Source: Chloroflexota bacterium (GTDB lineage Bacteria > Chloroflexota > Limnocylindria > Limnocylindrales > CSP1-4). Taken from it: a stretch of DNA of 64,000 nt. The notes beneath the pieces are model-generated. The model saw nothing but the letters and a program-made list of their open reading frames with translations, did not search any database and was not told the origin of the DNA. The DNA lies in the NCBI GenBank assembly GCA_046045415.1, contig JBJOLT010000015.1, positions 5,988 through 69,987 on the forward strand. The letters are read 5' to 3'. Both the position numbers and the translations under genes were made by a program. Below are positions 34,881 through 38,867 of this stretch, one piece after another. The stretch's first letter is position 1, and each line of letters begins with the position of its first letter.

Positions 34881-36668
34881 TCAGCGGAGCGGGATCGAGA
34901 GCTGCGCCACGCCGCGGAGCCCGAGGAGGTCGGTCCCGCTCACGGCGATCGAGAGGCGACCGGCCGTCCCGCCCCGGAGGACGGGGATCCGGGCGACCCA
35001 GCGGTCGCCCTCGAGGACCATCCGGACGCTCCGCGCCGCGAGGCCGGGCTGCATGACGCGGGCGACCGGCGGCGCGGCGACCGGCTCGGCCGCGGCCGCG
35101 GTGAGGACGAGGATCCCGCCCCGGACGGCGATCGAGCGGCCGGTCGCGAGGGCGAACGGCCCGACCCCGATCGGCACCCCGATCCGGGTCGCGAGCCCGC
35201 CCGACGCCGCGACGACGCTCGCCCGGTACGTGCCCGGCGCGACGGGGCGGCCGTCCGCCCCGATCCCGTCCCAGGGGACGGCGTGGAACCCGGCCCCCCG
35301 CGGCGCTCGCGGGGCGACGGTCGCGACGGTCCGGCCGGCCGCGTCGAGGATCGCGACCGAGACGGTGGCGGCCGCCGCGAGCGTGAACGAGACCTCGGTC
35401 GCGCCGGGGGCGGTCCCGTTCGGGTCCGCCGGCCAGATCGCGGGGAGGCTCGTGGCGACCCCCGCGAGCGCCGTGTGGACGGCGATCCGCTTCTGGAGCG
35501 GCGGCGCCACGTTCCCGGCCGCGTCGCGGGCGGAGACGGTCGCGACGTACCGTCCGTCGGGGACGACCGCGCCCGCGTCGTCGCGCCCGTCCCACGTGAC
35601 GGTCGTCCGTCCCGGAGCGACGGGGAGCGACCAGGCGCGGACCGGGCCGCCTCCCTCCGCGGCGATCGCGACCTCGAGCAGGCCGCCCTCGCCGAGGGCG
35701 AGCGGGAGTGCGATCGACTCGCCGACGCCGTCGCCGTTCGGCGAGAAGGTGACGGGGGCGAGGGCGTTCCCGACCGCGACGAGCGTCGGCGGGGCGACGT
35801 CGGGGGGCGGGGCGACGACCGGGGCGCCGAGCGCCGGATCGAACGGCGCGAGCGGGTCGGACGAGGTCGCGCCGCGGACGGCGTCGGTCGTGAGCGACGG
35901 GTCGCCGAGGAACGAGCGGTAGAAGCCGGTCGTCGGCGTCTCCGGATCGAGCTGGCCGAGCCGGCCGGGCGTCCGGACGCTCTGGAAGGGGATGAGGTTC
36001 CAGTTCGCCCCCGGCGCGACCCGCCAGAGCGAGTCGAGCGTCTGGCTCGTCGCGAAGAGCGCGTTCATGTAGTAGACGGAGCCGCGGTGCGCGTCCGCGA
36101 TGACGGCGCCCGCGCCCGCCGCGCTCCAGCCGGCCGCCATGTTGTCGACGCGCTGCTGCGCGACGTCGATCGTCGGCTCGCCCCGGCCCGGCTCGGAGTT
36201 CCCCGAGGCGTAGCAGAGGTGGTGGAGGAGGACGAGGGCACCCGGCGCCAGCCTCACCTCGGCGGCGAGATACGCCTCGCCCCAGTAGCGGGTCGTGGAG
36301 TCGCCGCTCCCCGGATACGGGTTGAGGCCGAGGCCGTCCTGGGTCGCCGGGAGGAGCGTGGTCGAGTACGGGCTCGGGAACCCGTTCCCGTGGCCGAGGT
36401 AGACGACGACGTTCGCGCCCTGGAGCGCCGGCTTCGCGAGCTCCCACGTCGCGTTCGGGGAGTAGAGGGTCGTGACGTCGCTCGTCCACCGGCGGGCCTC
36501 CGCGGCGATCGCCTCCGCCTCGCTCCGATACGAGGAGGTCATCGAGCCGGCGGGGCCGACGATGACGACGACCTTCGGCGGGGTCGCGGCGGCGACCGGC
36601 GGGGCGGCGAGCCCGAGGGAGCCGGCGGCGGCGAGTGCCGCGAGGATGACGGCGACGAGTCGGTTCAC
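34881..36668 (-). CDS. Secreted protein: N-terminal putative caspase/gingipain-like (His-Cys) domain plus C-terminal FlgD-Ig-like domains
   Basis: Signal peptide. YLGHGNG...HHLCYASGNS is spaced like a clan-CD His/Cys dyad. C-terminal TVTWDGRDDAGAVVPDGRY-type repeats resemble FlgD Ig-like domains. Confidence 0.6.
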   Translation of the reverse strand: MNRLVAVILAALAAAGSLGLAAPPVAAATPPKVVVIVGPAGSMTSSYRSEAEAIAAEARRWTSDVTTLYSPNATWELAKPALQGANVVVYLGHGNGFPSPYSTTLLPATQDGLGLNPYPGSGDSTTRYWGEAYLAAEVRLAPGALVLLHHLCYASGNSEPGRGEPTIDVAQQRVDNMAAGWSAAGAGAVIADAHRGSVYYMNALFATSQTLDSLWRVAPGANWNLIPFQSVRTPGRLGQLDPETPTTGFYRSFLGDPSLTTDAVRGATSSDPLAPFDPALGAPVVAPPPDVAPPTLVAVGNALAPVTFSPNGDGVGESIALPLALGEGGLLEVAIAAEGGGPVRAWSLPVAPGRTTVTWDGRDDAGAVVPDGRYVATVSARDAAGNVAPPLQKRIAVHTALAGVATSLPAIWPADPNGTAPGATEVSFTLAAAATVSVAILDAAGRTVATVAPRAPRGAGFHAVPWDGIGADGRPVAPGTYRASVVAASGGLATRIGVPIGVGPFALATGRSIAVRGGILVLTAAAAEPVAAPPVARVMQPGLAARSVRMVLEGDRWVARIPVLRGGTAGRLSIAVSGTDLLGLRGVAQLSIPLR

Positions 36669-36812
36669 GCGATCGAGACCTCCGCTCTGCGAGGGAGGAC
36701 GATCGTGGGCGCGGCCCGGGGTGGTGCGCAGCCGTGCGAAGGTCCGCGGGTCGCTGGCCCCTTCGTCCGGCTGTGCCCGGTGCGCGGACGCCCACGGCGG
36801 GGCGGCCGCCCG

Positions 36813-37796
36813 CTACGGGACCGGGGTCGGGCTCGGCGCGGCGGGGTCGGGGGTGACGAACGGCTGCTCCGAGTCGGGGAGCGTCCCGTCGTCGTTCGTC
36901 ACCTCGGTCGGCTGCTCGCCGAGGTCCGGGAGGCCGCCCTCGTAGTCGGTGATGACGAGGACGTACTCGAGCCGGTCGAGGTCGGCGGTCGGCTGGAGGT
37001 AGGCGGTCTGGACGACCGCGTTCGCGTCGCGGATCACGTCGACGACCTGGCCGACGACGAGGCCCTTCGGATACGGGGAGCGGACCCCCGACTGGAGCTC
37101 GATCCCGGCGGTGACCACCTCGTCGCCGATGAGGATCTTCTCCGTCGAGTCGATGTTCCGCATGACGAGGACGCCGCCGAGCTGGCCGTCGATCTCCCCG
37201 GTCGCGGCGCTCGCCTGCAGCTGGCCGATCACCGTCGAGCTCGTGTCGTTGATGAGGACGACGTTCGCGGCATCGCGGCCGACCTGGACGACCCGGCCGG
37301 CGAGCGCGCCGCCCGCCGCGATGACGACGTCGCCGACGGCGATCCCCTGCGCGGTCCCGACGTCGATCGTGATCACCCGTCGGAAGTCGGACGCATCACG
37401 GCCGATGACGATCGCGGTGACGGTCGCGAACTGGAGTCCGTTCCGGAGCTGGAGGAGCCCGGTGAGGAGCTCGTTCTCCCGCGCGAGCTCGACCGCCCGG
37501 GCGTTCTCGGCCCGGAGCCGCGCGTTCTCGTCGATGAGCCGGGCGTTGTCGCGCCGGAGCCCGTCGATCTCGGTGAGCGCCGCGGTGATGGACGCCCCCG
37601 TCCTCGCGACCGAGGTGAGCGCCGCCTGGAGCGGCCGGAAGGCGAAGCCGATCCCCTTCTGGACCTCGACGATCGGCTCGGCGCTCGAGAAGGCCATGAG
37701 GACGACCGTCGCGACGAGGAAGACGACGTACGTGGCGACCCGCCGCCGCGCGGCGCGCGCGGCGAGGGCGGCGGCGGAGGGACCGACCCCGGCCAT
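36813..37796 (-). CDS. mreC: Rod shape-determining protein MreC
   Basis: N-terminal TM anchor, a coiled coil (LRAENARAVELARENELL) and the MreC beta domain. Confidence 0.85.
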   Translation of the reverse strand: MAGVGPSAAALAARAARRRVATYVVFLVATVVLMAFSSAEPIVEVQKGIGFAFRPLQAALTSVARTGASITAALTEIDGLRRDNARLIDENARLRAENARAVELARENELLTGLLQLRNGLQFATVTAIVIGRDASDFRRVITIDVGTAQGIAVGDVVIAAGGALAGRVVQVGRDAANVVLINDTSSTVIGQLQASAATGEIDGQLGGVLVMRNIDSTEKILIGDEVVTAGIELQSGVRSPYPKGLVVGQVVDVIRDANAVVQTAYLQPTADLDRLEYVLVITDYEGGLPDLGEQPTEVTNDDGTLPDSEQPFVTPDPAAPSPTPVP

Positions 37797-37814
37797 CGAC
37801 GACCCGGGCCCGGG

Positions 37815-38867
37815 CTAGCGCGGCGCCCGGAGGTAGGTGTCGGCGACGAGGACCCCGGTCAGGTTGTCGAGCTCCTCGAGGACGACCCCGGTCCCGCGGG
37901 CGACGCACGTGAGCGGGTCGTCGGCGACGTGGACCGGCATCTGGGTCGACTCGGCGACCCGCCGGTCCATCCCGGAGAGGAGCGCGCCGCCCCCGGCGAG
38001 GACGATCCCCTGATCCATGATGTCGGCGACGAGCTCCGGCGGCGTCTCCTCGATCGTGTCCTTGATCGTGTCGATGATCGCGGTGACCGACGGCTCGATC
38101 GCCTCGCGGATCTGCTCCGCCCCGACCTCGACGCTCCGCGGGAGGCCGGTGAGGAGGTCGCGGCCGCGGAGCGTGATCCGCTGGGCGTCCCACTCCCCCG
38201 GGTAGGCCGACGCGATCGCGATCTTGATGTCCTCCGCGGTCCGCTCCCCGAGGAAGAGGTTGTACTCGCGCCGGGCGTACGTGACGATGTCCTGGTCCAT
38301 CTCGTCGCCGCCGATCCGGATGCTCCGGCTCACGACGATCCCGCCGAGGCTGATGACCGCCACCTCGGTCGTCCCGCCGCCGATGTCGACGATCAGGCTC
38401 CCCGACGGCTCGCTCACCGGCAGCCCGGCGCCGATCGCGGCCGCCATCGGCTCCTCGATCAGGCGCGCCCAGCGGGCGCCGGCGTTCAGGGCCGCGTCGC
38501 GGACGGCGCGCTTCTCCACCTCGGTCACGCCCGACGGGATCCCGAGGAGCATCCGCGGGCGCGGGATGAGCCCGACCCGGTCGTGGACCCGGCCGACGAA
38601 GTACTTGAGCATCTGCTCGGTGACGTCGAAGTCGCTGATGACGCCGTCGCGGAGCGGCCTGACCGCGATGATGTTCGCGGGCGTCCGCCCGACCATCCGC
38701 TTCGCCTCGGCGCCGATCGCGAGGACCTTCTTCGTCTTCGCGTCGATCGCGACGACGCTCGGCTCGCTCATGACGATCCCCCGGTCCCGGACGTGGACGA
38801 GGGTGTTGGCGGTGCCGAGGTCGATCCCGATGTCGCGGGAGAAGAGGCCGAGGAGGCGGTCGAACAT
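37815..38867 (-). CDS. mreB: Rod shape-determining protein MreB
   Basis: MFDRLLGLFSRDIGIDLGTANTLV... and an actin-like ATPase fold. The longer ORF's N-terminus is a spurious extension. Confidence 0.9.
   Translation of the reverse strand: MFDRLLGLFSRDIGIDLGTANTLVHVRDRGIVMSEPSVVAIDAKTKKVLAIGAEAKRMVGRTPANIIAVRPLRDGVISDFDVTEQMLKYFVGRVHDRVGLIPRPRMLLGIPSGVTEVEKRAVRDAALNAGARWARLIEEPMAAAIGAGLPVSEPSGSLIVDIGGGTTEVAVISLGGIVVSRSIRIGGDEMDQDIVTYARREYNLFLGERTAEDIKIAIASAYPGEWDAQRITLRGRDLLTGLPRSVEVGAEQIREAIEPSVTAIIDTIKDTIEETPPELVADIMDQGIVLAGGGALLSGMDRRVAESTQMPVHVADDPLTCVARGTGVVLEELDNLTGVLVADTYLRAPR

Follow-up and report, generated by a model that had tools for sequence, protein, structure and literature searches.

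What kind of protein is encoded directly downstream of mreB and mreC in a genome of the Chloroflexota, and what does its place there say about its role? The question is raised by a 64-kb stretch of contig JBJOLT010000015.1 (Chloroflexota bacterium, assembly GCA_046045415.1), referred to below as the window, which is about 75% G+C across its length. On its minus strand the genes radC, mreB and mreC are followed, after a gap of 144 bp, by a gene for a 595-amino-acid protein, and we call this gene and its product X. A preliminary description of the locus had presented X as a secreted, possibly caspase-like protein standing in the place of mreD, pbp2 and rodA. We think it fairly probable that X is an active, Sec-exported and wall-associated cysteine peptidase of the clan-CD type, from a family not catalogued in the libraries that we searched, and that it acts in envelope maturation.

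Domain anatomy, predicted fold and conservation of X

The gene for X is one of four successive minus-strand open reading frames (ORFs) between 34.8 and 39.8 kb, all of which have a G+C content at third codon positions (GC3) of 0.95-0.98 and the codon-position G+C pattern of real genes. Its parts are as follows; pLDDT denotes the predicted local distance difference test score of the AlphaFold2 models, which were built with 65-80 homologues.

34881..36668, minus strand: gene X, encoding a 595-amino-acid multidomain protein predicted to be secreted; GTG start, stop codon at 34881-34883, GC3 of 0.97, coding-type codon-position pattern
36585..36668, minus strand: residues 1-28, Sec-type signal peptide as judged by eye (MNRLVAVILAALAAAGSLGLAAPPVAAA; basic N-region, hydrophobic core, and AAA before TPPK)
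35874..36584, minus strand: residues 29-265, N-terminal catalytic-type domain (N-domain) of a sequence-orphan family, predicted caspase-hemoglobinase (clan CD) fold
36390..36392, minus strand: codon (CAC) of His93, motif VVVYLG-H-GNG, two residues past strand 87-91
36213..36215, minus strand: codon (TGC) of Cys152, motif LVLLHHL-C-YASGNSE, three residues past strand 144-149
35784..35873, minus strand: residues 266-295, Pro/Ala-rich linker, predicted to be disordered (pLDDT <50 at residues 268-286)
35160..35783, minus strand: residues 296-503, two FlgD-type immunoglobulin (Ig)-like β-sandwich domains (296-398 and 399-503); PF13860, E value 5.3e-21, in two stretches; all-β in the model
34884..35159, minus strand: residues 504-595, terminal β-sandwich of no known family

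Thus the ORF lies after mreC on the same strand, as had been described, and the motifs that had been quoted from it are found at residues 90-96 (YLGHGNG, containing His93), 149-158 (HHLCYASGNS, containing Cys152) and 356-374 (TVTWDGRDDAGAVVPDGRY). Cys152 is the sole cysteine among the 595 residues. The signal region has no lipobox cysteine, and AlphaFold2 predicts a helix at residues 2-16 followed by a low-confidence stretch; the full-length model has a pLDDT of 88.4. The FlgD-type repeats attributed to the C-terminal half are borne out by the two PF13860 matches, and in a search of X against the PDB sequences only FlgD Ig domains were retrieved (7eh9_A, E value 1.8e-5). The database label "FlgD Ig-like domain containing protein" covers the C-terminal half only. 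We considered whether X could be a flagellar FlgD and rejected this, for the Ig domain alone matches (the best FlgD equivalog model scored 56.9 bits against a cut-off of 230, at residues 428-492) and the family of the FlgD N-terminal domain is not among the Pfam matches of X. The Ig-like β-sandwich is all that X has in common with the FlgD hook cap, and no flagellar genes lie near X.

The N-domain was modelled with a pLDDT of 91.7 and a predicted template modelling score of 0.91. The elements of the model follow one another in the order β33-37, α41-59, β65-69, α75-82, β87-91, two short strands, α131-137, β144-149, α167-183, β186-192 and α197-206. When the model was compared with known structures, clan-CD peptidases ranked first, almost exclusively. 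Gingipain R led with a score of 13.0 (173 residues aligned, 3.1 Å), followed by SAVED-CHAT (12.7), gingipain K (11.7), DdvA CHAT (11.6), metacaspase-9 (11.1) and legumain (10.9), and then by MALT1, GPI8, caspases-1/3/8/9, CED-3 and separases at 10.7 to 8.5; the first unrelated fold was a flavoprotein at rank 31 (8.2). The full-length model also retrieves RgpB, Kgp and PorU, and CHAT, C11 and separase proteins are among the best Foldseek matches. In the caspase scheme, the catalytic His is located on the loop after β3 (L3) and the Cys after β4 (L4) (PMC4357240). His93, past strand 87-91, and Cys152, past strand 144-149, occupy the same places. The model thus has the features by which clan CD is recognized, an α/β/α sandwich on a central, mostly parallel β-sheet, with His-Gly after β3 and Cys after β4, and the gingipain/caspase-like reading of the N-domain offered earlier is upheld by the predicted fold.

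Sequence comparison gave a different picture. None of the NCBIfam peptidase models matched X, PADLOC returned no match for it, and an alignment with hhalign to human caspase-3, for which an approximate query sequence was used, covered nine columns only (VVVYLGHGN/VCVLLSHGE; probability 0.3%, not significant). Of the features that accompany the C25 peptidases, X has no N-terminal prodomain, its domain starting at about residue 29, and no type IX secretion system (T9SS) sorting-domain family figures in its Pfam matches. We therefore describe the N-domain as having a predicted clan-CD-type fold without a sequence match to any peptidase family searched.

His93 and Cys152 are invariant in an alignment of 65 homologues (39-93% identity), as are E131, E159, R173, D175, N176, S230, R232 and R251. 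Among 217 distinct members of the family, 210 have both the His and the Cys and seven have neither (P0193, P0209, P0211, P0215, P0231, P0234 and P0235, with R/A, R/S, I/A or R/R at the two positions and the other invariant residues kept); no member has just one. The conservation of the pair across homologues, which had been proposed from the single sequence, is therefore borne out. Joint retention or joint loss is what one would expect of a catalytic pair in a family with occasional pseudo-enzymes, and the seven members are probably such pseudo-enzymes. The fact that Cys152 is the only cysteine also argues against a disulfide role. Pseudo-variants in which both His and Cys are replaced are known among orthocaspases (PMC6426788).

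The family is large. At E ≤ 1e-3, X has 1557 homologues among the candidates scored in a word-indexed database, and the N-domain alone has 1090 cluster representatives at 50% identity, 393 of them at E ≤ 1e-30. N-domain-coding stretches are found at least 578 times in species-representative genomes. Identity in this domain is about 50-70% across the family, and it is much better conserved than the Ig region. The 80 loci that were listed all come from Chloroflexota metagenome-assembled genomes (MAGs), and Ca. Limnocylindrales or Limnocylindria is the label of many of these. The same genomes also encode second paralogues, at loci that lack mreC (L039 9917-11743, L011 9893-11812 and others), and the C-terminal regions of these differ and contain no FlgD_ig domain. 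The L039 paralogue lies between an M20 peptidase gene and MarR/malonyl-transferase/KAS (fatty-acid) genes, and the gene sizes at L011 follow much the same pattern.

Linkage of X to mreBC and to a surface-glycan cluster

The genes on the upstream side of X are as follows.

38954..39724, minus strand: radC (RadC family with JAB domain), adjoining mreB on its upstream side; PF04002, E value 3.4e-36; NF000642, 204 bits (cut-off 180)
37815..38867, minus strand: mreB; PF06723, E value 2.2e-143; NF010539, 514.5 bits against 293; TIGR00904, 480.3 against 365.75
36813..37796, minus strand: mreC; PF04085, E value 5.3e-33; TIGR00219, 102.2 bits (cut-off 92.75)
36669..36812, minus strand: 144-bp mreC-X intergenic gap, with GGAGG about 10 nt ahead of the GTG start of X

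MreB, MreC and RadC all score above the curated NCBIfam cut-offs. The longest ORF for mreB (37815-38957, minus strand) begins at a GTG, overlapping the stop codon of radC, and has 30 residues more than homologues of 350 amino acids; the start is likely the internal ATG at 38867 (MFDRLLGLF...), which would give 350 amino acids, as in the homologues.

The association of X with mreC recurs in relatives. Among the 62 related loci with at least 7 kb of upstream sequence, mreC lies upstream of X in 47, so that the linkage suspected from the single locus is conserved; in six of them the two genes are directly adjacent, as in the window. In most of the other linked loci X is found about 3.7 kb from mreC with rml genes between, and in all but two of the 47 the strand is the same. 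The order radC-mreB-mreC itself recurs across the related loci, and five homologues on long contigs show the arrangement radC-mreB-mreC-rmlABDC-X-(GH18/FlgD_ig giant protein)-GT2-(GT1)-DUF3048. The window has no rml genes, which in most relatives (rmlABCD) stand between mreC and X. The remaining 15 of the 62 loci lack mreC and include second copies in genomes that also hold a linked copy. One copy (P0006) keeps the downstream GH18, GT2 and GT1 genes and has no mreBC upstream; it is located beside sugar-uptake genes and an S8 peptidase gene.

As had been reported, mreD, pbp2 and rodA are absent from the window. A Pfam scan of its approximately 60 called genes gave no match to MreD (PF04093), Transpeptidase (PF00905), PBP_dimer (PF03717) or FTSW_RODA_SPOVE (PF01098), and tblastn with E. 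coli RodA and PBP2 gave none, either in the window or across 88 related loci totalling 1.52 Mb, MreD being too divergent to be excluded by BLAST. The 144-bp gap between mreC and X is not long enough for mreD. No SEDS or class-B penicillin-binding protein gene lies within 10 kb of 80 sampled genome loci, and mreBC is thus unlinked to pbp2 and rodA in the sampled Limnocylindria-related loci. The statement that mreBCD is followed by pbpA and rodA in most rod-shaped bacteria was, however, too strong. In E. coli K-12, mrdA-mrdB is located at 665-668 kb, beside rlpA and rlmH and far from mreBCD, and in B. subtilis the order is mreBCD-minCD. To say that X is present instead of mreD-pbp2-rodA therefore overstates how canonical such an operon is. 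We also rejected X as a replacement for mreD, since X is by its sequence a soluble secreted protein and MreD is a polytopic membrane protein; X takes the place of neither MreD nor PBP2 nor RodA.

On the downstream side X is followed by genes for glycan synthesis and export.

33966..34796, minus strand: GT2 glycosyltransferase resembling polyprenyl-phosphate-sugar synthases, the next gene after X; PF00535, E value 1.7e-25; best NCBIfam models AglJ, PpgS and DPM-like, all below cut-off
28379..34000, minus strand: Wbp-like set of contiguous families (hexapeptide N-acetyltransferase, DegT aminotransferase, Gfo/Idh/MocA 3-dehydrogenase-like protein, nucleoside diphosphate (NDP)-sugar 6-dehydrogenase, WecB 2-epimerase)
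22348..24179, plus strand: Wzm/Wzt-type ABC-2 glycan exporter; PF01061, PF00005; best NCBIfam galactan/teichoic-acid exporter models, below cut-off

WecB (228.8 bits against a cut-off of 210.15) is the sole member of the Wbp-like set above its equivalog cut-off. The Gfo protein scores best with UDP-N-acetylglucosamine 3-dehydrogenase (261.6 bits, cut-off 450). Taking the families together, we infer that the set would make a uridine diphosphate-linked 2,3-diacetamido-2,3-dideoxy-uronic acid, by a pathway in which the 2-epimerase is optional. Beyond it are three GT4-type transferase genes, the Wzm/Wzt genes on the opposite strand, another GT4 gene, a second NDP-sugar dehydrogenase gene and a gene for a PpiC/SurA-like foldase. 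The stretch 19865-34000, mostly on the minus strand, is a large ABC-transporter-dependent glycopolymer locus with four GT4-type transferases in all, and the foldase that comes after it (18095-19819) has three domains.

A Wbp-like set is also found downstream of X in relatives. The closest named relative, a Ca. Limnocylindrales MAG with 59% identity, has the order X-GT2-GT1 and, further on, the same Wbp-like set as the window. In 33 of 50 loci GT2 comes after X, and it is no commoner on that side than mreC is upstream. Taken together, X is most aptly regarded as heading a surface-glycan cluster next to radC-mreBC.

In many relatives a further gene lies between X and GT2. It encodes a GH18 protein of about 1200-1350 amino acids with FlgD_ig domains (L005 10452-14366, L006 10448-14302, L087 13135-16911 and at least 17 others), and in at least 20 loci a hidden Markov model of the last 92 residues of X matches the extreme C-terminus of this neighbour. 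The terminal domain was detected in 28 of 42 mreC-linked copies of the X family, as compared with 1 of 15 unlinked copies. When further proteins with the domain were sought by profile, 26 short fragments were all that came back, which is uninformative. Since a peptidase-type head and a glycosidase head are joined to the same tail, the simplest reading of the sequences is that the Ig domains and the terminal domain would together be a shared module for surface or wall targeting (or for sorting).

Possible function of X

We favor the following account of X. The signal peptide would be cleaved off upon export; with the catalytic domain beginning at about residue 29, there is no sign of a prodomain. 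The terminal β-sandwich, together with the two FlgD-type Ig domains, would keep the protein on the cell surface or in the wall, where Cys152 would act as the nucleophile and His93 as the general base in cleaving a peptide bond of an envelope substrate, the acyl-enzyme then being resolved by water. Because X stands at the head of a conserved glycopolymer locus that abuts radC-mreB-mreC, its most likely job would be to mature surface or wall-bound proteins or peptides, or to turn them over, as the envelope grows, perhaps with some coupling to MreB-guided growth. In a monoderm host a Sec-exported X would end in or on the wall. Heliorhodopsins have been reported from monoderms only (bioRxiv 10.1101/356287). 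The window has a heliorhodopsin gene (949-1770, minus strand; PF18761, E value 1.7e-79) adjoining a Na+/H+ exchanger gene, and this indirect marker of envelope type fits a monoderm host.

Several observations weigh against this account. Pfam, even at E ≤ 10, placed residues 28-275 in no family, whether PF01364 (C25), PF12770 (CHAT), C14, C13, C11 or any other, and neither an N-domain profile of 23 sequences nor phmmer found a peptidase among all PDB sequences. The Foldseek matches are weak (best E value 1.7e-3, TM scores of 0.33-0.40), with flavodoxin-like folds interleaved among them, and the proposed equivalence of His93 and Cys152 to the catalytic residues of RgpB and the caspases rests on strand order in the model. 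The seven members that lack the pair may be one clade, so that the pair was possibly lost once only. Synteny does not prove function; X and mreC usually have rmlABCD between them, and paralogues are found in unrelated contexts. As to an operon, a scan from mreB to GT2 found neither a sigma-70-like promoter nor an intrinsic terminator, consensus scans being uninformative at 75% G+C. There is also no GH18 gene in the window with which X could share its tail.

One could envision X as a sortase-like transpeptidase, an analogue of PorU that would clip a C-terminal domain off surface proteins (such as the neighbouring GH18 protein or X) and link the new C-terminus to an amine on a wall glycopolymer. 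Enzymes of the gingipain family do act as transpeptidases, and PorU couples its cargo to a linking sugar of Wbp-pathway origin (PMC7468200; PMC8545088). X is one gene away from a WbpA/B/E/D/I-like set, and the terminal β-sandwich of about 92 residues that X and the GH18 protein have in common resembles the T9SS C-terminal domain in position and size (PMC11285876). In its setting, then, X is like PorU, which works at the surface with a Wbp-sugar glycan (PMC7468200), in that it adjoins Wbp-like genes; PorU differs in having the T9SS partners PorV/Q/Z and an outer membrane, which X is without, and the two have no sequence homology. Nothing favors transpeptidation over hydrolysis, however, and no aminoacyl-sugar-forming (VimA- or Fem-like) enzyme was noticed in the window. 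The Wbp assignment holds at the family level only, WecB alone being above an equivalog cut-off, and just two types of protein were found with the shared terminal domain. We therefore think a transpeptidase unlikely. The fuller version of the idea, in which a gingipain-fold X is the monoderm counterpart of PorU, trims the domain of about 92 residues and couples surface enzymes to a Wbp-type diamino-uronic-acid wall glycopolymer along the growing side wall, is likewise doubtful; if true, it would amount to a form of protein-to-glycan anchoring unrelated to the classical sortases or to the SLH and LCP systems.

Another explanation is that X is a peptidoglycan endopeptidase, which, together with the GH18 protein in relatives, would open the sacculus for MreB-guided elongation in the manner of LytE/CwlO or MepS. 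An autolysin of this sort would account for the conserved place downstream of mreC, and the high conservation of the catalytic domain would suit an invariant substrate. Peptidase and glycosidase heads with one targeting module are often seen in autolysin sets, and some GH18 enzymes (SleL/YaaH of Bacillus) cut peptidoglycan. To our knowledge, however, no clan-CD enzyme cleaves the stem peptides of peptidoglycan, with their D-residues and iso-peptide bonds. Pfam finds no peptidoglycan-binding domain (LysM, SH3b, PG_binding, SPOR) in X, paralogues occur in non-envelope contexts, and the rml genes usually intervene between mreC and X. The functional analogy with LytE and CwlO of B. subtilis and MepS of E. 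coli, which are NlpC/P60 enzymes of clan CA, is a possible one, and their fold and family are wholly different from those of X; their tie to MreB is biochemical and genetic in model organisms, whereas that of X is one of synteny only. We give this explanation little weight.

It could also be argued that X is an ordinary secreted or nutritional protease, or an adhesin-protease, and that the mreBC neighbourhood is inherited gene order without functional meaning. The several paralogues per genome, with their diverse contexts and varied C-terminal regions, would agree with this, as would P0006, which has sugar-uptake and S8 peptidase genes for neighbours and no mreBC, and secreted hydrolases commonly bear Ig-like domains. 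On the other hand, the place by mreC is kept in 47 of the 62 loci over many species, the terminal domain marks the linked copies, X is set among envelope genes on the same strand, and the conservation is unusually high for a scavenging enzyme, all of which makes an ordinary protease improbable. Least probable by far, in our view, is a non-catalytic scaffold or adhesin with a flavodoxin-like α/β domain, in which the His and Cys would be structural or bind a metal or ligand. The mixture of flavodoxin-like and clan-CD folds among the Foldseek matches, the lack of sequence homology to peptidases and the natural variants without the pair could be taken in its favor. Against it, the His-Gly and the Cys are at the clan-CD positions after β3 and β4, the two residues disappear only jointly, and a structural role is unlikely for a cysteine that stands alone in a secreted protein.

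An exported clan-CD-type peptidase, the reading that we prefer, would have a close parallel in the gingipains RgpB and Kgp of Porphyromonas gingivalis (family C25). These are secreted cysteine peptidases of the cell surface with a catalytic domain, one or more Ig-like domains and a C-terminal β-sandwich, an arrangement predicted for X from its sequence and model. Unlike the gingipains, X has no detectable sequence similarity to that family, no prodomain, Ig domains of the FlgD type and a probable monoderm host in the Chloroflexota. The catalytic residues of RgpB are His211 and Cys244, and the spacing between His and Cys is about 33 residues there as compared with 59 in X. The CHAT proteases (SAVED-CHAT, Craspase Csx29, the anti-sigma factor DdvA) work in cytoplasmic or membrane signalling and defence, whereas X has a signal peptide, Ig-like domains and no neighbouring defence genes; a defence-type CHAT protease was rejected on account of the signal peptide, the envelope context and the negative PADLOC search. 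With caspases, metacaspases and orthocaspases, legumain and GPI8 (C14, C13), X has in common the predicted core fold and the placing of His after β3 and of Cys after β4 (PMC4357240). It differs from the C14 and C13 enzymes in giving no profile match, in being predicted to be extracellular and in showing no sign of dimerisation or of activation by cleavage.

The clan-CD fold, its chemistry and the combination of a clan-CD domain with Ig-like domains at the surface are already known. What is new is a family that is unmatched in Pfam, NCBIfam, the PDB sequences and PADLOC and that so far comes from one uncultured lineage, together with its conserved place by mreBC and a Wbp-like glycan cluster and a tail common to a GH18 enzyme. 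If X is active, a new clan-CD family would probably have to be filed. Ca. Limnocylindria is a widespread uncultured lineage of soil and freshwater whose envelope biology is little understood, and the X family is characteristic of it; the position of X and the targeting domain that it shares with the GH18 protein make testable candidates for wall remodelling or decoration in probable monoderms. The value of these findings lies mostly in annotation and in the generation of hypotheses, and current models are not overturned.

Other genes around the locus

Elsewhere in the window, a gene for a cyclic-di-AMP receptor (PF06153) beside one for a GAF-GGDEF diguanylate cyclase and a TldD/PmbA pair of metallopeptidases in tandem are located at 50570-52047 and 52789-55604; they have no relation to X. 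Upstream of radC, positions 39888-42518 (minus strand) encode a CPBP/Rce1-like intramembrane protease, which has a long extension at its N-terminus, a double-zinc-ribbon (DZR) membrane protein and a polytopic membrane protein of 299 amino acids without a Pfam family. The DZR and Rce1-like families are also present upstream of radC in the relatives L004 and L088. An ATP-grasp gene resembling L-amino-acid ligases (PF18130/PF13535/PF18603) and a NifU gene, neither of which is in the window, are found just upstream of mreB in some relatives (L002 2599-3825, L006 800-2032). At 42526-45717 (minus strand) the window encodes a UPF0182 membrane protein of 1063 amino acids with a C-terminal tail that is GGSGGSGGSGGSGG/Pro-Thr-rich. 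UPF0182 is likewise located within about 10 kb of radC-mreBC in L025, L030, L042, L046, L049 and L081, and in L004 it lies on the opposite strand.

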